Source of the DNA: Lentisphaerota bacterium
Lineage (GTDB): Bacteria; Verrucomicrobiota; Kiritimatiellia; UBA8416; JABMPJ01
Assembly: GCA_013203785.1 (NCBI GenBank)
Contig: JABMPJ010000110.1
Span: 3,344-67,343 of the forward strand
DNA length: 64,000 nucleotides
Direction of reading: 5' to 3'
A model generated the notes under the pieces. The model saw only the letters and a list, made by a program, of their open reading frames with translations. It did not search any database and was not told the origin of the DNA. This document shows positions 3,368-17,033 of the stretch, piece after piece. The stretch's first letter is position 1, and every line of letters begins with the position of its first letter. The position numbers and the translations under genes are program-made.

Positions 3368-6300
3368 TCACTCTCCATGGCATTTTTTGAATTTCTTGCC
3401 ACTGCCACAGGGACAGGGGTCGTTGCGACCGACCTTGTCGTCGTCACGTTGCATGGTGGGGCGCGTGCCCGTCGGCGCGACAGGGGGCAAACCAGAGACC
3501 GTGCCCGGTGACATGCGGGGCGGCGGCATCCCACCACGAGGAGCCCCAGGCTGCGAAGGTCCACCGCCCAACAGAGACACCTCGTCGTGCACGAGGGTCT
3601 GAGGGAGGGCCGACAGGAAGGACTCAAAGGAATCGGCCGACGTGGTGGTACGGAAGGCGGCCGAGGCGATGTCCTGCTTAATCGTGGTCATGAGCTGACC
3701 AAACATCTCAAAGGCCTCGCGCTTGTACTCCACCAACGGGTCACGCTGCCCATAGGCGCGCAGGCCCACACCCTGGCGCAAGGCGTCCATCGAGCGCAGG
3801 TAATCCTGCCACTGCGAATCAATGCTCTGCAGAATGATATGCCGCTCCATGACACCGACGGCACCCGGATCCTCCATCTGAAGCTTCAGTTCGTAGGCCC
3901 GCTCGACCTTGCCGTAGACCCGCTTGGCGATCTCCTCAGAATCAGACGCCTCACTCAAATCCGATGGACGAATCGCGATCGGAAATGTCAATTGGACCCA
4001 TTCAACGAAACGGCGCAGCGACTCCTCGTCTGGATCCGATGGCAGCCCTTCGGACTCCTCCATAATGACGTCGTGAAGAATGTCGTAGAGCTGCTCGCGC
4101 ACCGCCTCGGCACGCACAATATCACCGCGAAAACCGTATATGACCTCACGCTGACGATTCATGACGTCGTCATACTCAAGCGTGCGCTTGCGGATCGAGA
4201 AGTTGTGCTGCTCGACGCGACGCTGGGCGGTCTCGATCGACCGGTTCAGCCAGCGGTGCTCCAGCTCCTGGCCTTCCTCCAGCCCGAGCCGCTCCATGAT
4301 GCCGGCAATGCGGTCCGATCCGAAGAGCCGCATCAGATCGTCCTCCAGTGAGACGTAGAAGCGGGATGACCCCGGATCGCCCTGACGGGCACAGCGTCCG
4401 CGCAGCTGACGGTCAATGCGGCGCGACTCATGCCGTTCGGACGCAATCACGTGCAGGCCAGAGGGGTTCTCCTCCAGTTCAGCGCGCAACGTCTTGCCGC
4501 TCTCAAGACGCTCGTCGAGACCCAATTGCGATTCGATGATGGCGCGGTCGATCTTAACCACCCCCGCGCCCAACTTGATGTCTGTCCCTCGTCCGGCCAT
4601 GTTGGTCGCAATCGTTACGGCCCCGGGCTGTCCCGCCCGCGTCACGATTTCGGCTTCGGCTTCATGGTTCTTTGCGTTCAACACGTTGTGCACGATGCTC
4701 GCTCGCTTGAGCATGCGACTGAGGAGTTCGGATGTATCGACCGTGACGGTGCCCACCAGAACCGGCTGACCCCGATCGTGGCACGCACGGATCTCGTTAA
4801 TGACCGCGGCATACTTCTCGCGCTGCGACTTGTAGACATGGTCGTTTGCATCGACCCGCCTTACGGGACGGTTGGTTGGAATGACGATCGTGTCCAAGTT
4901 GTAGATATCGTGGAACTCGGCCGCTTCGGTTTCCGCCGTACCGGTCATACCGGCCAACTTATCATACATGCGGAAGTAGTTCTGAATCGTGATCGTGGCC
5001 AGGGTTTGCGTCTCGCGCTCAATTTTGACGCCTTCTTTGGCCTCCACCGCTTGGTGCAGACCATCGCTCCAGCGACGGCCAGGCAGGATGCGGCCCGTGA
5101 ACTCGTCCACGATCATGACGTGGTTGTCCTGCACCACGTAGCCGACATCCTTTTCGTAGAGACAGTAGGCCCGAATGAGCTGGTCCACGTTGTGGATCTT
5201 CTCACTGCGATCCGAGTAGGTCTGTTGGACCTCCTGCCGTAGGCGGGTCTTTTCCTGCTCCGAGACATCGTCACCCATACCATCCAACTCCGACATGGCT
5301 GAGATAATGTCGGGCAGCACATAGGCTTCAGGATCAGTCGGGTTGAGTTCTTCGCATCCCTTCTCGGTCAGGCTGGCGTCATGGCCGCGCTCGTCGATCG
5401 TGAAATAGAGCTCCTCGCGAAGCTCACGGGCCTGCTCCTTGCGCATATCGGTCAACATCATGTTTTCGACCTGCTCATGGAGCTTGCGAATGGCCGGATC
5501 CTCCAGCATGTGCATCAACTGCTTATGCTTGGGCATGCCGTGGTAGATCTGATAAAGCAGGAATTGCGCGGCCTCTTTTTCATCGGCAGCCAGGTGCTTG
5601 CGTAACTCCTGAACCATGGCGTTGCAATGCGATCGCTGTTTGCGTACCAGCTGCTCAACGCGCGGCTTTAATTCAAAATACTGGTTAGAGGAATACTGAG
5701 CGGGGCCCGAGATAATCAGGGGGGTGCGTGCCTCATCGATCAGAATGCTGTCGACCTCGTCGATGATCGCATAGAAATGACCACGCTGTACTTGGTGCTG
5801 AGGCTCAAAAGCCATCCCGTTGTCCCGTAGGTAATCAAAACCGAACTCGCTGTTCGTGCCATAGGTGATGTCCTTGGCGTACTCTTCACGCCGCTCATCG
5901 GGCGACATCTGATTCTGAATGCAGCCCACGGTCAGGCCGAGGTATTGCAGGAGCACCCCCATCCACTGCGAATCGCGGCGGGCTAGATAGTCGTTGACCG
6001 TCACGAGGTGAACGCTCTGGCCTGTCAGCGCGTTGAGATAGAGCGGCATCGTCGCGACAAGCGTCTTGCCTTCACCCGTCGCCATTTCGGCGATCTGGGA
6101 GCGATGCAGCACGATGCCTCCGATGAGCTGCACATCAAAGGGCACCATGTCCCAAGACAGTTCATGACCCGAGACCATTTCGGAGGTGCCCACCAATCGA
6201 CGGCAGGCATTCTTCACCACAGCGAAGGCCTCGCACATGATGTCATCCAGCGCCTCTCCGCCGGTCAGCCGCCCCCTGAATTCGTCGGTCTTGCCTTTCA

Positions 6301-10366: not shown

Positions 10367-10410
10367 CTAGAACCGGTCCGATAAAGGGCATCAAGGAGGT
10401 TGGGACAAAT

Positions 10411-10445
10411 AACCTTGAACCTTGAACCCAGAACCTAGAACCTCA
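10411..10445 (+). repeat. Five tandem heptamers (AACCTTG family)
   Basis: AACCTTG AACCTTG AACCCAG AACCTAG AACCTCA ending 5 nt before the addB ATG; a partial complement TCAAGGAGGTT lies at 10391-10401. Confidence 0.85.
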
Positions 10446-10450
10446 CGTGC

Positions 10451-13243
10451 ATGCCAGTGTCGTGTCATTTTCTGGGATGGGATCGTCCGCTTACGGAGGG
10501 GGTGCGCGACTTTCTAATTCCGGTACTGCCGACGGGACCGGTCGACTTGGAGCGCGACCTCGTGGTGGTGCCCACGCGCCAGGCCGGGCGCCGTCTGACC
10601 GATGCGCTCGCGCTACGCTGCGGCCAAGCCGGAACCGCTCTCCTGTCGTGCCGTGTCGTTACGCCATCGGTCCTCCTCGGAGCGGCAGATAGCCCACGGA
10701 CGGTCGCTCGCCCGCTGGATGTGCAGAGCTGCTGGATCGACGTGCTGAGTGCGATCAACATCACAACTCTCAGCGGTCTCTTTCCCTCCCCTCCCGCCCA
10801 GGTGGATGCCGAATGGGCTCTGCGCTTCGCCGGTACCATTGAGGATCTGCGACGTGCCCTTCTGGATGGGGGACTCACCATCAGTCGACTCGTCGCCACC
10901 CGTCCCGATGATCTGGCTGAACTCGATCGCTGGCGGGATCTGGCCCTGCTCGAGGACGACTACTTGGCCCGCCTGAGCGCCATGGGCCTTGAGGACCCGG
11001 TCCTGCAGCAGCTCGCCGCCGCTGAGCATCCCCAGATCGATGCTATCGTGCAACGCATCATCGTGGCAGGTGTCCCCGATCCGACAGAGCCATCCATTCG
11101 CGTCCTCAGCGCCCTCGCCGAAAGGCTGGACCTACAGATTCTGATCGCCGCTCCCGAGAGCCACGCCGACGCATTTGATTCATGGGGACGCCCCCGCCGT
11201 GAGATATGGAACCAGCATTCGATCGCCTTTGCGAACCCCGATCAGCAGATCCTGCTGGCCGCCACACCGGCTGACCAGGCAGAGAGGGCGATCGAGCTAC
11301 TCCAGCGTGCCGCCACGGCAGGGAACCAGCCGGCCGCCATCGGCACACCCGATCACGATCTTATTCCGCATATCCAGTCTGCACTCCTCCGCCACGGCGG
11401 TGCCGGGTTTGACCCCTCTGACAAACCCCTGCGCGACCACCCCCTCTTCCACCTGACTGAGGCCTTCGTCAACCTGGCCTCCGACCGGAGCTACGCCGCC
11501 CTCGCCCAGCTTCTTCGTCAGCCCGAGCTACTGAGGTGGATCGAGCATGGTCAGCGCGGTCGTTCCGCCGCCCTTTTGCGCGCACTGGATGACCTCCAAA
11601 ATGAACACATCCCATGGGACCTGAGCGCAGTGCGCCACTGGCTCAGCGGAACCGCAGCCGACGCCCCCCTCTCTCAGACCGTCAACGGGATTGCCGCACA
11701 CCTGCCCGCTCACGGCGCGCCTCTCTCCGCGGCCTTGCGCACCTTTATGCAAGCCGTCCTCGAGCACCGTGCCGTTACGGCCGGATGCGCCGAGGATGAT
11801 GAATTTGAGCGCGCCGCGCGCGGCATCGATAACGTCCTGCACGAGCTGGCCGCAGTGGAGTCACGCACCCCCCTCCCCCTCCGCAACGCCGCGCTGCTTC
11901 TGATGCGCCGCTTGGGCGAGCTGAGCTATAACCGTGAGCGCGATCCGGCTGCTATCGATCTCGACGGTTGGCTTGAGCTACCCTGGAATCCGGCCCCCAC
12001 GCTGATCGTGACTGGCTTCAACGAGGGTATCGTGCCCGCCGCCCCTACCGATAGCGCCTTCCTGACCGATTCATTGAGAACGCTTCTAGGAATGCGCAAT
12101 GACGCCGACACACTCGCGTGCGATACGTTTCTGCTCCAGACCTTGATCGAAGCACGCCGATCCCACGGGACACTCACTCTGATCGTTGGCAAAGTCACCG
12201 ACAGCGGCGATCCGCTACGGCCCTCGCGACTGCTGTTGCGCTGTCCGGATGACGTCCTGCCCGAGCGGGCCGCGATGCTCTTTGCCGACGTGTCAGTGCC
12301 GCGCAGCCGACCGGCACCCACGGTCGCCTTTACGCTCAATCCAGCCCCGCCGGAGGATCTGCCGGCCGACCAACATATCCCCACGGCCCTGTCCGTCACG
12401 GCGTTCAGGGATTATCTGGCCTGTCCTTTCCGCTTCTATCTCCGCCGCATTTTGCGCATGGAACCGCAGGATGACCGCAAGCGTGCCCCCGATGCGCTCG
12501 ACTTCGGCATCATGGTCCACGAGGCCTTGCAACGCATGGGAGAGAACGAGGAGCTGCGCACCTGCAGCGATGCCCGCCTGCTGACCAGCTTTCTGACCGA
12601 ACAGGTCGAGCGCTACGTCACGCGACAGTTCGGTGCCGCCCCCGCCCTACCCATCCGCATGGCCATGCACGCCGCCCAACAGCGACTCGAAGCCGCTGCC
12701 CACGTGCAGGCCACGCTCGCAGCCGACGGATGGGAGATCATCGCCGCCGAGACCGCATTCAGCCGGGAACTGGGAGGACTGACGCTGAAGGGCAAAATCG
12801 ACCGCATTGACCGCCACCGCGACAGCGGCGCCCTGCGCCTGATCGACTACAAGAGTAAGGACACCTCCGAATGGCCTGCGGCCACCCACCTCGGCACACA
12901 GCGCGAAGATACGCCCGAGTTCGCACAGGTTATGGTCGATGGCAAACCGAAACGCTGGATCGATCTACAGCTTCCCCTCTACGCCATCTTCGGTGTCGAG
13001 GCCAGCGAGACCCCGCCGGAGCCAGCCTATTTCAATCTCCCGCGCGCCATCTCCGAAACCGCCCTACTGCCGTGGCCAACCTTTGATGCTGACCTGGCCT
13101 CCTCCGCCCTCGACTGCGCCGAAGCCGTCACCGCCCTGATCCGGGCGGGCACCTTCTGGCCCCCCGCCGAGCGCGTCGACTATGACGACTTTGAATCCCT
13201 CTTCCACGACGGTCTCCACGGATGGAAGGAGCTGGTCTCATGA
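10451..13243 (+). CDS. addB: AddB/RexB-like subunit: inactive helicase-like region plus PD-(D/E)XK nuclease
   Basis: VVVPTRQAGRRL; C-terminal SVTAFRDYLACPFRFY, GKIDRID, IDYKS and QLPLY; lies directly upstream of addA. Confidence 0.85.
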   Translation: MPVSCHFLGWDRPLTEGVRDFLIPVLPTGPVDLERDLVVVPTRQAGRRLTDALALRCGQAGTALLSCRVVTPSVLLGAADSPRTVARPLDVQSCWIDVLSAINITTLSGLFPSPPAQVDAEWALRFAGTIEDLRRALLDGGLTISRLVATRPDDLAELDRWRDLALLEDDYLARLSAMGLEDPVLQQLAAAEHPQIDAIVQRIIVAGVPDPTEPSIRVLSALAERLDLQILIAAPESHADAFDSWGRPRREIWNQHSIAFANPDQQILLAATPADQAERAIELLQRAATAGNQPAAIGTPDHDLIPHIQSALLRHGGAGFDPSDKPLRDHPLFHLTEAFVNLASDRSYAALAQLLRQPELLRWIEHGQRGRSAALLRALDDLQNEHIPWDLSAVRHWLSGTAADAPLSQTVNGIAAHLPAHGAPLSAALRTFMQAVLEHRAVTAGCAEDDEFERAARGIDNVLHELAAVESRTPLPLRNAALLLMRRLGELSYNRERDPAAIDLDGWLELPWNPAPTLIVTGFNEGIVPAAPTDSAFLTDSLRTLLGMRNDADTLACDTFLLQTLIEARRSHGTLTLIVGKVTDSGDPLRPSRLLLRCPDDVLPERAAMLFADVSVPRSRPAPTVAFTLNPAPPEDLPADQHIPTALSVTAFRDYLACPFRFYLRRILRMEPQDDRKRAPDALDFGIMVHEALQRMGENEELRTCSDARLLTSFLTEQVERYVTRQFGAAPALPIRMAMHAAQQRLEAAAHVQATLAADGWEIIAAETAFSRELGGLTLKGKIDRIDRHRDSGALRLIDYKSKDTSEWPAATHLGTQREDTPEFAQVMVDGKPKRWIDLQLPLYAIFGVEASETPPEPAYFNLPRAISETALLPWPTFDADLASSALDCAEAVTALIRAGTFWPPAERVDYDDFESLFHDGLHGWKELVS

Positions 13244-13275
13244 GTAGCGCCTGCCGAGCTCCGTTGATCCAATCT

Positions 13276-13345
13276 GAACATCGAACATCGAGCGAAGAGG
13301 TCCCCGTTTCGATGTTGGACGTTGGATGTTCGATGTTCGATGTTC
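13276..13345. repeat. Heptamer (GATGTTC family) inverted-repeat hairpin in the addB-addA spacer
   Basis: GAACATC GAACATC GA (13276-13291) faces GATGTTG GACGTTG GATGTTC GATGTTC GATGTTC (13311-13345). Confidence 0.85.
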
Positions 13346-13360
13346 GTTTCATTTCTCCTG

Positions 13361-13388
13361 CTGTGTTCATCTGTGTTCATCCGTGGTT
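13361..13388 (+). repeat. Decamer tandem repeat
   Basis: CTGTGTTCAT CTGTGTTCAT CCGTGGTT. Confidence 0.75.
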
Positions 13389-13408
13389 CCATCCCAAAGA
13401 ATCTCCCC

Positions 13409-16400
13409 ATGTCTGATTTCCAACACAAAGCTATCTCCGCCTCAGCCGGGTCAGGCAAGACCTTCCAGCTGGCCGACCGCTTTGTGCGCCTCCTCGCTGC
13501 GGGGGTGCCGCCGGATCGCATTGCGGCCCTGACCTTTTCGCGCAAGGCCGCAGGTGAGATCTTTGACCGTATCGTGGCCCATCTCTGCGCGGCCTGCACC
13601 TCTCCCGCCGAAGCCGCCGCCGTCGCCACGAGGATTGGTCTACCCGCCACCTCCGTCGCGGCCTTCACGGCCGCCCTGCGCGCGATGATGGATCATTTGC
13701 CGCGCCTCCATATCGGCACGCTCGACAGCTTTATTGTTGGCGTGCTGCGCGCTTTCCCGACCGAGCTGGGGGTCCCGACCGATTTCCAGATGCTCGATGA
13801 GAACAGCACAGATGCGGCTCGTATGCGCGAGCGAGTGCTCGACCGCATCTTCAACCCCCTCACGGTTGACCAGGAGATCCAGGCCCGCTTTTTCGAAGCC
13901 TTCAAACAGGCCACCTTCGGTAAGGAGGAGAAGGACATGGAGCGCTACCTGCACCAGTTCGTGCAGACCTACCGTGCCTTCTACCAAGTCCTGCCCCTCA
14001 GCGACGCCTGGGGCGATGAGTCCGTGATATGGCCTGCCGGATCGCGCTGGCTGGTACCCACCGAGAATGTCACCGCCACGGCCAACCGTCTCATTGAACA
14101 GATCGAGGCCAAGGAGTGGCCCACCAAGTTCTCCGAGAGCCTGCAGGAACTCGTCATGGCTGCCGCCCACCACACGCCCGCCTCGCACTGGAACGGGACG
14201 CTATGGCGCAAGACCATTTCCGTTCAAATCATGGAGCAGCTGCCCGAACTGGAGCACGGTCAGCTCTCGATCTCGTACAACCGCAAGGTCTACGAGCTTG
14301 ACGCCGGTATGTGCGCCGGGCTTCTGACCGTCTTGACCCACATGCTCGGTATCGAACTGCGCAACGCCCTGCGGCGCACGGCCGGCATCCACCAGCTTCT
14401 CGACCAGTTTGAGGTTCACTATGATGCTCTGATGCGCCGCTCCGGCAGTATGACATTTGCCGATGCGCAGTACCTGCTCACCGAAGCCAATCGCTATAGC
14501 GATGGTGCCTGCCTCAGCCGGTTGGCGGGCGTTGAGGGACGGCTCTATATTGACTACCGCCTCGACTGCAAGCTCGACCACTGGCTGCTAGACGAGTTTC
14601 AGGATACCAGCGATCTGCAGTGGGCCGTCCTGCGCAATCTGGTGGACGAAATCCTGCAGGACAGCAGTGCCACGCGCAGCTTCTTCTATGTGGGTGACGT
14701 CAAGCAGGCCATTTATGGCTGGCGCGGCGGCAACCCCCATCTCTTTGGCGAAATCCTCTCCGATTATGGCAGCCGGATCACCGAAATGCCCCTGGCGACC
14801 TCCTACCGCTCCGTGCCCGCGATCATTGATACCGTCAACGCGGCCTTCGATGCCCTTCCCGAGGAACGTCTGGGCGCGGCCGTGATCGCACAGTGGAACC
14901 AAACATGGCACCACCATGACTGCGCGCCGCACCTGCACGGGCGCAGCGGATACGCCACCATCGTTGAGCCCCAGCCCCCGCTGGGCCAGACCAAGCCCAG
15001 CGCCGACGACCGCTACCACACCGTAGCCGCGCTCCTGCGGGAGATCGATCCCATACGACGTGGCCTCGAAACCGCCATCCTTGTGCGCCGCAACGAGACG
15101 GGCCGTCTTCTGGTGGATCTCCTACGCCAACGCTGCCCCGACATCCCGGTCACACACGAAGGCAAGGCGACACTGCGCGGGAACGGCGTGGTTGAATTGA
15201 TGCTTTCTCTGCTCGCCTTCGCCGCGCATCCAGGCGATCGCTTTGCCTGGCGCCACATCCAGATGAGTCCGTTAAACGCCCACCTCCAGGCGGAAGGACT
15301 GACGCGCCACTCCCTACCTCTCGTGCTGCTCAGCGATATCCATGCGATCGGTTTCGGTGGGTTCGTACGCACATGGGGCGCGCACCTCACGGCGCAGCAT
15401 CCGCTTGACGCCTACGCGCAACACGGCCTCAACGATCTGGCCGAAGCTGCGGTCCTGTTTGATCGCAGTGGCGACTGCGATCCGGACGCCTTCCGCCAAT
15501 TCATAGATAGCTACGCCCTGCCGGCCACGCCGACGCCACACGTCGTACGGGTCATGACGATTCACCAATCCAAGGGCCTCGGCTTTGACATCGTCATCCT
15601 GCCCGAACTCGACGGTTCCGACATCACGAAAGATCAGCGGCGCTCCATGCTGCTAAGCCGCGATGAAGAGACGCGACGCCCTCAATGGATTCTGAGCCTA
15701 CCCAACACCACCGTCACTGCGGCGGACAGCACGCTCGCTCGTCGACTCGACGCCGCCGACGTTGAGAGCTGCTTTGAGAATCTTTGCGTGCTCTATGTCG
15801 CCATGACACGCGCTAAACGCGGTCTCTACGCCGTCACCAGCTTTGCCGGGCCCACCGCCAAGAGCTTCACCGGCAGCGAATTCATCAAGCAGCAACTGCG
15901 CGATCGTGAGGAGCCCATCACAATTGATGGGTGTCCGGCCACGCTACTCTACGAGTCGGGGGAACGAGACTGGTATCGTGAAAGCCCCATCGCGGCACGC
16001 GATCCTGCGCCAGCTGTTGCGTCCGCACCCAACGCGATTGCCGCCACAGGGTTGCAGCCACTGCAGCGCCTCGAGCCGTCATCGGGCGATCGCACGGCCC
16101 GTGGGGCCGCGTGGCTGTTCAATGAAGCTGCACGCGACGTGCTGGATTTCGGCAGCGCCATTCACGAGCTCTTTGAACAGATCGAATGGATCGAGGAGGC
16201 GGATGTCGAGGCCATCGTCGCCCAATGGCAGACGACCACGCGGGTTTCCGCCGCAGTGGCCCGCGACGCCTTGGCACAATTTCGCGAGGCGCTCATCAGC
16301 CCTGAGGCGATCCAAGCCTTGAGCCGTCCCGCATCACCCACCCGTCTCTGGCGCGAAAAGCGTTTTCATTTTACGAAAGAGGATCGCCTCGTGAGCGGCG

Positions 16401-16636
16401 TCTTCGACCGCGTTGCCATCTCGCTGGACGAGAAGGAGCAGCCGACAGCCGCGATGATCCTCGATTTTAAGAGCGATCAAGTCAGCAGCGACAGCGAACT
16501 CAGCAAGGCGACCGAGCGTCACCGTGAGCAGCTCGCCCTCTACAGCGAGGCGCTCGCCCGCATTCTATCGATCGAGCCCAGCCAGATCACGGCGGGACTA
16601 CTCTTCACCCGCCTGGGCCGAGTCGTGACTTGTTAG
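13409..16636 (+). CDS. addA: AddA/RecB-like SF1A helicase-nuclease (start corrected to ATG 13409)
   Basis: ASAGSGKT, LTFSRKAAGE, GTLDSF, LDEFQDT, VGDVKQAIYGWRG, MTIHQSKGLGFD, LYVAMTRAK; nuclease SGVFDRV, LDFKSD, QLALY. Confidence 0.92.
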   Translation: MSDFQHKAISASAGSGKTFQLADRFVRLLAAGVPPDRIAALTFSRKAAGEIFDRIVAHLCAACTSPAEAAAVATRIGLPATSVAAFTAALRAMMDHLPRLHIGTLDSFIVGVLRAFPTELGVPTDFQMLDENSTDAARMRERVLDRIFNPLTVDQEIQARFFEAFKQATFGKEEKDMERYLHQFVQTYRAFYQVLPLSDAWGDESVIWPAGSRWLVPTENVTATANRLIEQIEAKEWPTKFSESLQELVMAAAHHTPASHWNGTLWRKTISVQIMEQLPELEHGQLSISYNRKVYELDAGMCAGLLTVLTHMLGIELRNALRRTAGIHQLLDQFEVHYDALMRRSGSMTFADAQYLLTEANRYSDGACLSRLAGVEGRLYIDYRLDCKLDHWLLDEFQDTSDLQWAVLRNLVDEILQDSSATRSFFYVGDVKQAIYGWRGGNPHLFGEILSDYGSRITEMPLATSYRSVPAIIDTVNAAFDALPEERLGAAVIAQWNQTWHHHDCAPHLHGRSGYATIVEPQPPLGQTKPSADDRYHTVAALLREIDPIRRGLETAILVRRNETGRLLVDLLRQRCPDIPVTHEGKATLRGNGVVELMLSLLAFAAHPGDRFAWRHIQMSPLNAHLQAEGLTRHSLPLVLLSDIHAIGFGGFVRTWGAHLTAQHPLDAYAQHGLNDLAEAAVLFDRSGDCDPDAFRQFIDSYALPATPTPHVVRVMTIHQSKGLGFDIVILPELDGSDITKDQRRSMLLSRDEETRRPQWILSLPNTTVTAADSTLARRLDAADVESCFENLCVLYVAMTRAKRGLYAVTSFAGPTAKSFTGSEFIKQQLRDREEPITIDGCPATLLYESGERDWYRESPIAARDPAPAVASAPNAIAATGLQPLQRLEPSSGDRTARGAAWLFNEAARDVLDFGSAIHELFEQIEWIEEADVEAIVAQWQTTTRVSAAVARDALAQFREALISPEAIQALSRPASPTRLWREKRFHFTKEDRLVSGVFDRVAISLDEKEQPTAAMILDFKSDQVSSDSELSKATERHREQLALYSEALARILSIEPSQITAGLLFTRLGRVVTC

Positions 16637-16726
16637 GGCGGCAGGGGGCCGACCATTTTAGGTGCGCACAAAAATCCAGCAACTGGGTTAATAGCAGAGA
16701 CGCATGCGGGGTCAAGCCCCTCTTTC

Positions 16727-16864
16727 AATGTCCAACAGCCCACAAGGAACTCCCAATATCCAAGGCGGCGAGAAGAGGGAATGGTGTGCCTAGGTGCTCT
16801 CCATTCGCATTACTCGCTCGCTTGCCTTGTTCGGTTGGATATTCCTTGTTGGCTATTGGACATT
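16727..16864. repeat. About 138-nt imperfect hairpin with heptamer-built arms (AATATCC/AACAAGG family)
   Basis: Left arm AATGTCC|AACAGCC|CACAAGG|AACTCCC|AATATCC|AA; reverse complement of right arm AATGTCC|AATAGCC|AACAAGG|AATATCC|AA; extra inner pairing CAAGGC/GCCTTG and GAATGG/CCATTC. Confidence 0.85.
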
Positions 16865-17033
16865 CAATCAGGAATGATGCAGATTTGGGCTTAAATCTGA
16901 ATTTGTGGGTTTTTCCAGGAGACCATCTTCGTGCTTGCCGCCAACAACAAAGCGTGGCTAACTTGGGGCACATAGTGAGCCTCCCATCATGGGCAGGCTG
17001 GTGAGCGGCTTGGGCTGCAGAAAGGACATCATC

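Follow-up and report, generated by a model that had tools for sequence, protein, structure and literature searches.

Why are the adjacent genes addB and addA set among three blocks of heptamer repeats, each built from a different 7-nt unit? We addressed this question in a 64,000-nt stretch of DNA (the window) from a Lentisphaerota bacterium, which lies on contig C88 of a 4.0-Mb metagenome-assembled genome of Kiritimatiellia with 229 contigs and 59.5% G+C (the genome under study, labeled G000), and used five genomes of the same genus (the congeners, G001–G005) for comparison. The blocks, here called sites 1, 2, and 3, are located upstream of addB, between addB and addA, and downstream of addA, just where a preliminary description of the window had placed them. 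None of them is peculiar to addAB; they are ordinary members of a class of elements that occupies about 130 loci in the genome. Members of this class have arms of a fixed four to five units, occur as near-identical copies, are conserved in congeners at non-orthologous positions, are present or absent at orthologous gene junctions, and share their architecture with the surroundings of TIGR02436 genes. The three blocks are probably separate copies, from different families, of small non-coding dispersed repeats with 7-periodic inverted arms that inserted as selfish elements resembling MITEs (miniature inverted-repeat transposable elements), an explanation that we hold with moderate confidence. 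No evidence for an addAB-specific role or regulation was found.

The repeat blocks at addB and addA

The addB gene (positions 10451–13243; forward strand, as for all features of the locus described here) encodes a 930-aa PD-(D/E)XK nuclease subunit with the Pfam domains PDDEXK_1 and RecC_C, and addA (13409–16636) encodes a 1075-aa protein with a UvrD-type helicase and a C-terminal PD-(D/E)XK nuclease (Pfam PDDEXK_1, assigned from the translation). Their orthologues in the congeners show 60–68% (addB) and 67–76% (addA) identity, and the nearest public relatives of AddA come from Kiritimatiellia metagenome-assembled genomes. Homology places the addA start at the ATG at 13409; a TTG at 13322 falls within the site 2 repeat and is not the start. 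Rfam, searched over the full window at gathering thresholds, gave no match.

Site 2, between the two genes, forms an inverted-repeat hairpin. Its left arm (13276–13294) consists of 2.3 copies of GAACATC (13276–13291) extended by GAGCG, and its right arm (13308–13346) of 5.6 GATGTTC-type units that read TCGATGT, TGGACGT, TGGATGT, TCGATGT, TCGATGT, and TCG. The outermost perfect pairing spans 16 nt, a 20-bp stem forms in the minimum-energy fold (−38.4 kcal/mol, z = −4.1), and the loop of 17–38 nt contains no open reading frame (ORF). The arms are unequal by about three whole units, as slippage of whole units would explain. A terminator scan flagged the right arm with its tail CGTTTCATTT; the total of terminator-like sites equaled the shuffle expectation, and members of the family to which site 2 belongs lack a consistent T-run after the stem, so that they are probably not standard terminators.

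Site 3 (16726–16865), downstream of addA, is an inverted-repeat element of about 140 nt that belongs to what we call family A. Its left arm (16726–16765) and right arm (16825–16865) are about 79% complementary across 38 nt, and the 59-nt loop between them (16766–16824) has no ORF and holds an inner hairpin, GGGAATGG / CCATTCGC. The element folds into a rod of −66.6 kcal/mol (z = −6.8). Since its arms are 7-periodic through a recurring CCAA/TTGG core rather than through identical units, site 3 was missed by Tandem Repeats Finder (TRF). The preliminary description had stated that the arms of both hairpins differ by whole 7-nt units; this is true of site 2, whereas the arms of site 3 are equal in length, with their inner halves one heptad out of register.

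Site 1 (10411–10445) is a solo direct array of five AACCTTG-type heptamers (in order, AACCTTG, AACCTTG, AACCCAG, AACCTAG, and AACCTCA; TRF period 7, 4.7 copies). It begins 45 nt past the stop codon (10366) of an M42-peptidase gene, which lies upstream of both site 1 and addB, and ends 6 nt ahead of the addB ATG (10451). Its predicted RNA fold was no better than those of shuffled sequences (z = −0.7), with no significant structure. The AACCTTG-type unit recurs in three sister species, as a full hairpin in G004 and as arrays in G003 and G002. The 7-mers of the three sites had been called unrelated; they do belong to distinct families, but all of them share a (G/C)AAC-type core at 7-nt spacing.

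A dispersed class of 7-periodic elements

A whole-genome TRF scan of G000 revealed a marked excess of 7-nt periods: at scores of 50 or more, 36 arrays had period 7 as against one of period 8, six of period 6, and seven of period 9. At scores of 40 or more there were 84 period-7 arrays, of which 73 were intergenic, at gene edges, or within the first 150 nt of a probably over-extended ORF call. The genome has 36 canonical units, headed by GAACATC (35 arrays), CGGAGGT (12), and CTGAATT (8), and an array is typically paired with one of the reverse-complementary unit 8–170 nt away. Arm copy number among the 84 peaks sharply at four (25 arrays) and five units (37 arrays). Altogether 133 element loci were recorded, 57 of them, many at contig ends, falling outside the gene-to-gene spacers as assigned by script, and 79 of 2857 gene-to-gene spacers (2.8%) were occupied; genes were called with a simple custom ORF picker, and these context statistics are accordingly approximate. 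The addAB locus is the sole run of three consecutive occupied spacers in the genome (permutation P ~0.04 for at least one such run). These results bear out the earlier proposal that the shared period reflects a common class of mechanism, all three blocks being copies of dispersed elements with 7-periodic inverted arms. Chi-site clusters serving addAB were considered as another source of the arrays and rejected, since the arrays occur genome-wide and in many different units.

Sites 2 and 3 each have numerous relatives. Site 2 is a member of the GAACATC family, the commonest heptamer family of G000, which comprises 35 TRF arrays at 25 or more loci. Many of its members share an arm of five units in which the third is a variant, and the assembly was evidently broken by near-identical copies at least 130 nt long, seven or more of which lie at contig ends. 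Family A gave 37 BLAST match clusters in G000, about 35 of which are true copies. Its arm consensus is GAATATC CAACAGC CAACAAG GAATATC CAACCGA CCAAGG, and its center often reads GCGAATGG...CCATTCGC. Among 27 complete copies gathered from G000 and G001, those of the two species were ~85–90% alike by eye although they occupy non-orthologous loci, while the proteins of both species are ~75% identical. Because the same order of five non-identical heptads per arm is fixed at dozens of loci, the elements cannot have arisen by independent local slippage and must be copies of a master sequence. As in MITEs, terminal inverted repeats are thus combined with many conserved dispersed copies, ~35 loci for site 3 and at least 25 for site 2; site 1 has one copy in G000 and family members in G002, G003, and G004.

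Filled and empty alleles were found at orthologous junctions. A junction of 214 nt carrying a family-A element in G001 (G001:C51:99862-100076), for instance, corresponds to an empty one of 24 nt in G000 (C133:4896-4920). At the addAB sites, likewise, the comparison of relatives that the preliminary description had in view yielded empty and occupied alleles; the gene-filled alleles that it also envisaged were absent from all three sites in the five congeners. To gauge the background, a further 109 orthologous junctions were compared in G001, G003, G004, and G005, for which base occupancy was 13%, 9%, 5%, and 5%, respectively. An automatic count that excluded the G004 addB–addA junction found that 19 junctions held an element in one or both genomes, only one of them in both, a co-occupancy that proved too pessimistic on reading by eye. 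Of 11 junctions occupied in G001, four (roughly one third) were still filled in G000, one by an orthologous family-A copy, one by an unrelated hairpin, and two by decayed arrays. Occupancy is therefore partly inherited, and we claim no strong statistical support for an insertion hotspot at addAB.

The locus itself was present in three metagenome runs of a single study, all of them DNA and none RNA. No copy-number variants were seen at the locus in these runs, and the metagenome contigs broke within the right arm of site 2; two of the contig joints have short sides that probably represent other copies of the repeat. In runs X2 and X3, summed contig depth across 13203–13433 reached 3500–4100 on the GATGTTC arm versus about 3–5 on its flanks, so these freshwater metagenomes must contain abundant GATGTTC-type arrays in many sequences besides this one.

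The preliminary description had further associated such repeats with genes for four-helix-bundle proteins, and this association holds in G000. A PF05635 profile search of G000 gave five matches at four loci (C227, C110, C141, and C25), and all four are bracketed, or armed, by inverted tandem arrays. The arms are heptamers at three loci (GAATTCA-type at C227, ACAGGAG / CCCTGAC-type at C110, and GGTGTCG at C141) and 12/15-mers of the GAAGATCGGGAC type at the fourth, a tandem four-helix-bundle gene pair (C25:3790-4790). The three heptamer-armed proteins, when scanned with the NCBIfam model TIGR02436, scored 120, 79, and 68 bits against a cut-off of 24. The five congeners had 0–21 PF05635 matches each, and 9 of the 19 loci inspected by eye carried arrays on both sides with periods of 7, 8, or 12. 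Their units include a CGGAGGT type arming genes in G004 and an AACACCT-type array downstream of one locus in G002, and both unit families occur gene-less in G000. Inverted arms of tandem short units are thus present at sites 2 and 3 and at all four PF05635 loci, and no PF05635 gene lies between the arms of site 2 or site 3.

Several further observations concern these genes. Locus L053 (G004:C4) resembles the C25 locus, with GAAGATCGGGAC-type arrays upstream, and L055 (G002:C25) is a homologous tandem locus. The four-helix-bundle genes at L049 (G001:C66) and L054 (G003:C284) have arms of 8-nt period, CGAACAGC / CGAACATT, whose units resemble GAACATC plus one base. At three places in G000 (C214:10894-10921, C227:1480-1515, and C114:10005-10035), CAGGAGT/CAGAATT-type arrays end in AGGAGTCAGA-ATG, in which the final unit is Shine-Dalgarno-like and the start codon follows directly; the start belongs to a four-helix-bundle gene at C227, to a host gene at C214, and to a 4-codon stub at C114.

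The addB–addA boundary, mobility, and competing explanations

The addB–addA boundary was compared across the six species. G004 has a plain ATGA stop/start overlap with no insert, and in most outgroups the two genes either overlap in a similar way or are separated by a short spacer free of heptamer arrays. In G001, six GTCGGAG-type units (42 nt) form a single direct array that is translated as a 14-residue AddB tail, and in G003 six AACTCAG-type units likewise form a single translated direct array; the tails measure 14–15 residues across the two species, and the overlap is kept in both. G002 shows a weak 7-periodic stretch over a TTGA overlap, and G005 has a 130-nt spacer with an AAGACAC-type hairpin after the addB stop. 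In G000, the ancestral overlap is replaced by a 166-nt spacer that carries the GAACATC hairpin. Because this insert with its strong hairpin breaks the overlap, AddB and AddA are probably no longer translationally coupled in this genome, and this is the modest message of our analysis for addAB itself.

Upstream of addB, no array was present in G001–G004, the four congeners whose locus extends that far. Downstream of addA, arrays were found in G002 only, one of ATYCTGA at the stop codon and another of 12 AACCTTG/AACCTGA units about 600 nt beyond. Synteny is lost directly after addA (window 16637–16990 compared with L001, L004, and L005), with site 3 at the break, and a downstream gene common to G001, G002, and G004 (~167 aa in G001, MSYDLEQARVH...) has no homologue in the G000 assembly. 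Two further families within the order have addB–addA spacers of 260–370 nt that contain long non-heptamer inverted repeats (L007 of G030, 4358–4620; L009 of G013, 4208–4588); hairpin elements of various kinds seem to gather at this boundary. The addA coding sequence of the sister species G001 contains a CCCGACA array of 4.6 units (G001:C51:96863-96894, within L028), in frame and translated as PPTPDTQHPAPA, in the variable linker that precedes the AddA nuclease domain. A separate dispersed motif occupies 13361–13395 in the window, 14–48 nt 5' of the addA ATG, and consists of 2.5 copies of CTGTGTTCAT followed by CCGTGGTTCCATCCC (TRF period 10). It occurs at ten loci of the genome at up to three mismatches, five of them inside 8 kb on C111, with an inverted partner upstream at some loci, and it could be either a regulatory box or a relative of the heptamer hairpins with a 10-nt period.

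Possible agents of mobility were also examined. About 25 loci, most of them at contig ends (for example, C68:20513-20528, C96:67-82 and 2439-2454, and C1:165-180), carry an outer palindrome, CGCTACWTTGMRTGGG / (G)GYTCTTCGCTACWTTGMRTGGG, around either a family-A element or a GAACATC hairpin. Two such palindromes stand back to back at C1:165 with nothing between them, and none lies at the three addAB sites. From sequence, these arrangements look like nested small repeat elements. G000 also has an unusually large set of 12 Y1_Tnp loci (245–355 aa; e.g., C135:5817-6875, C222:13677-14744, and C114:5925-6959) that resemble IS200 transposases and the transposases associated with repetitive extragenic palindromes (REPs), called RAYTs. 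Two of them (C135 and C222) are flanked by REP-like palindromes of their own (GGGGTCRGYCCT...). The palindromes that flank Y1_Tnp genes differ from the outer palindrome, and the elements described here do not fit REPs or bacterial interspersed mosaic elements mobilized by a RAYT, which are short palindromes tipped by GTAG/CTAC that flank a cognate Y1 transposase gene. Inverted heptamer arrays lie 0.7 kb apart at C97:16226-17015 and 1.8 kb apart at C126:6939-8806, both followed by GGCGATTCTTCGCCGCTG, and the C97 pair encloses, by eye, transposase-like gene fragments.

Several points weigh against MITE-like insertion. No actual movement of an element was seen, and no pair of outer motifs was found to enclose a transposase gene, a weak absence given the fragmented assembly. 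The Y1 transposases were rejected as mobilizer, as neither heptamer arrays nor the outer CGCTAC palindrome flank any of their 12 loci. In near-identical copies, the flanking sequences part at the outer motif itself and show no obvious target-site duplication, and filled/empty pairs between species are too diverged to give exact ends. Site 1 is a singleton in G000, and a search for an inverted partner arm found none. The addB–addA boundary is occupied in five of six species, by a different unit in each and in three modes; free insertion and loss predict less occupancy, which hints at a hotspot or at selection at the boundary, and this recurrence is suggestive and not statistically compelling. 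Element density per kb of spacer is 0.207 between co-directional genes versus 0.103 between divergent genes (hand chi-square P ~0.05), which is also compatible with a role at the transcript level, and the approximate gene calls behind such statistics count here too.

One alternative, in line with a suggestion of the preliminary description, is that the addB–addA spacer hairpin, and perhaps the one after addA, are selected RNA structures kept for cutting by RNase III or for 3'-end protection, thereby uncoupling or tuning AddB versus AddA. Such selection would account for a boundary filled by unrelated units in five of six species while G004 and most outgroups retain an ATGA-type overlap, for a hairpin after the addB stop in both G000 and G005, for the co-directional density, and for another junction that has unrelated hairpins at the same place in G001 and G000. 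Precedents exist as well, because RNase III cleaves at the first heptamer of an intervening sequence (IVS) stem in Coxiella (PMC4990558) and the Xanthomonas repeats are transcribed (PMC4692102). Nevertheless, the junction in G001 and G003 carries a single translated array with the overlap kept, no hairpin is conserved, and site 1 has no significant structure. Occupancy per junction is equal for all orientations (2.8% co-directional, 2.7% convergent, and 2.6% divergent), and the runs containing the locus are all DNA. When 21 co-directional hairpins were folded in sense and antisense, the sense strand was favored in 11 and the antisense strand in 10 (Wilcoxon P = 0.93), with no bias and no sign of G:U selection; equal folding on either strand fits a DNA-level or neutral element better than a strand-specific RNA. 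We therefore regard selected RNA hairpins as unlikely.

Comparable doubt attaches to a scar proposal, which takes up the suggestion of the preliminary description that the repeats are scars of a mobile cassette class: each gene-less hairpin would be the internal-deletion remnant of a TIGR02436 cassette that once stood there. The architecture of the gene-less hairpins is the same as that of the armed cassettes at C227, C110, and C141; unit families are common to armed genes and gene-less elements (AATTCAG in G000, CGGAGGT in G004, and AACACCT in G002); and the left arm ends in AGGAGTCAGA-ATG in both the cassette and the gene-less AATTCAG elements. However, when the interiors of gene-less GAACATC and family-A elements were compared by BLAST with 30 four-helix-bundle loci from the genus, no homology emerged; the AATTCAG elements that lack a gene have a conserved 75-nt interior of their own, which is unrelated to the four-helix-bundle gene. 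A short GAAGTGGG after the last unit that gene-less and gene-bearing elements have in common was noted by eye only and is not significant. Gene-less loci outnumber armed genes roughly 30:1, and none of the addAB sites holds a gene in any congener. Membership in the same class is thus supported, and the scar proposal is not. A further, somewhat less likely possibility is that one mobile system comprises both the armed TIGR02436 cassettes, as its autonomous members, and the gene-less hairpins, with the three addAB blocks among them, as its non-autonomous majority. The encoded protein would recognize arrays of four to five heptads, and the system would insert preferentially at the stop/start boundaries of co-transcribed genes, either as a hairpin after the stop (G000 and G005) or as an in-frame 42-nt six-unit tail (G001 and G003), with addB–addA as a recurrent target.

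Two other explanations appear more improbable still. Were the arrays plain microsatellites, arisen in place by replication slippage with neither transfer between loci nor function, one would expect arms that differ by whole units, as at site 2, decayed arrays remaining at orthologous junctions, a singleton such as site 1, and differences like the single heptamer that separates Coxiella strains (PMC4990558). The fixed order of non-identical units at many loci largely refutes this for sites 2 and 3; moreover, copy number is tightly peaked at four to five rather than broad, near-identical copies stand at several loci, and inverted pairing is the rule. Equally doubtful is the idea that the four to five heptads of each arm are putative docking sites for an oligomeric DNA- or RNA-binding protein, such as a pentameric four-helix-bundle protein. 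It would suit the arm length, the arming of all four-helix-bundle genes of G000, and the homopentameric state of a Xanthomonas homologue (as cited in PMC4990558), but at least 36 unit sequences face only four gene loci in G000, and G005, which is 71% complete, has a junction hairpin and no PF05635 match.

On balance, MITE-like insertion remains the explanation that we favor. The elements would spread as selfish modules, lose or gain whole units by slippage, and persist at gene boundaries, where harm is small. At addAB, they would be co-transcribed with the genes, and sites 2 and 3 would give long double-stranded RNA stems that RNase III could cut; any effect on AddB:AddA expression would be a by-product and not the reason for their presence. 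Of the simple repeats of bacteria, heptamers are the one class that is both over-represented and still unexplained. G000 has gene-less hairpins, solo arrays, translated arrays inside genes, and armed four-helix-bundle genes side by side, and the genus, with filled and empty junctions among its members, offers a natural series for asking whether the elements move, by what means, and what part the four-helix-bundle protein plays.

Comparison with known repeat systems

Two kinds of bacterial repeats form the background to these elements: the tandem heptanucleotides of Calothrix are the short tandemly repeated repetitive (STRR) sequences of cyanobacteria, and the Correia and enterobacterial repetitive intergenic consensus (ERIC) elements are MITE-like small dispersed repeats that are transcribed into hairpins. 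Like the latter, the G000 elements are about 100–250 nt long, have inverted arms, occur as dozens of intergenic copies, are conserved over loci and species, and are present or absent at orthologous sites. They differ in that neither a target-site duplication nor an autonomous partner was found and in that their arms are internally 7-periodic, which is not so in those families. Among the repeat classes listed by Rehm et al. (2015; PMC4692102) are MITEs and REPs, and the paper also refers to Calothrix PCC7601 with its three tandem heptanucleotides.

The closest parallels are the intergenic inverted heptamers that Rehm et al. described, GGGAATC in Xanthomonas (70–75 pairs) and GGGGAYT in Nostoc (PMC4692102). 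In those genomes as in G000, tandem 7-nt units are over-represented in non-coding DNA throughout the genome, the arms preferably have about four units, and many arrays form convergent inverted pairs able to form stem-loops. Related species differ in repeat length but agree in repeat type (single or paired), and the Xanthomonas repeats are likewise enriched between genes of the same direction. STRR-like repeats of at least three tandem 7-nt units, with a period-7 excess mainly outside genes and convergent pairs of 4–5-unit arms, are just what was found in G000. Measured by copy number, site 1 has 4.7 units and site 2 has 2.3 and 5.6, while site 3 is periodic in its CCAA core only. Unlike the Xanthomonas and Nostoc repeats, the G000 units have no G-tracts of the GGGNATC kind (none of AACCTTG, GAACATC, and GAATATC/CAACAGC contains one), and an explanation by G-quadruplexes therefore does not apply. 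G000 also has dozens of unit families instead of one, some of its arms consist of non-identical heptads in fixed order, and its elements are linked to a gene family, whereas no such link is named in PMC4692102.

In Geobacter metallireducens, Aklujkar et al. (2009; PMC2700814) reported paired five-unit MTYCTGA sites on opposite strands and four-unit GGACCGG elements. These, too, are 4- or 5-unit arrays at dozens of intergenic and some intragenic places, often in opposite-strand pairs at variable distance, and MTYCTGA matches the ATTCTGA/CTCCTGA units of the AATTCAG family of G000. The Geobacter sites come from a different phylum and were annotated, without tests, as putative binding sites of global regulators or regulatory RNAs (PMC2700814).

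The 23S rRNA IVS of Coxiella burnetii bears an ORF for an S23p protein and has a stem that RNase III cuts (Warrier et al. 2016; PMC4990558). It resembles the G000 elements in its long stem of terminal inverted repeats with tandem heptamers, the heptamer number differs between strains, and its gene family, PF05635/TIGR02436, is the very family that is armed in G000. If co-transcribed, sites 2 and 3 would form long double-stranded stems of the kind that RNase III cuts in this IVS. The differences are that the three addAB elements have no ORF and that they lie in mRNA spacers and not in 23S rRNA. A literature search linking the IVS protein or TIGR02436 to heptamers returned nothing relevant. Thus, gene-less heptamer pairs were known before from Xanthomonas, Nostoc, and Geobacter (PMC4692102, PMC2700814), and the rRNA form with a gene was known from Coxiella (PMC4990558); what is new is the occurrence of such elements in another phylum, with new unit families.

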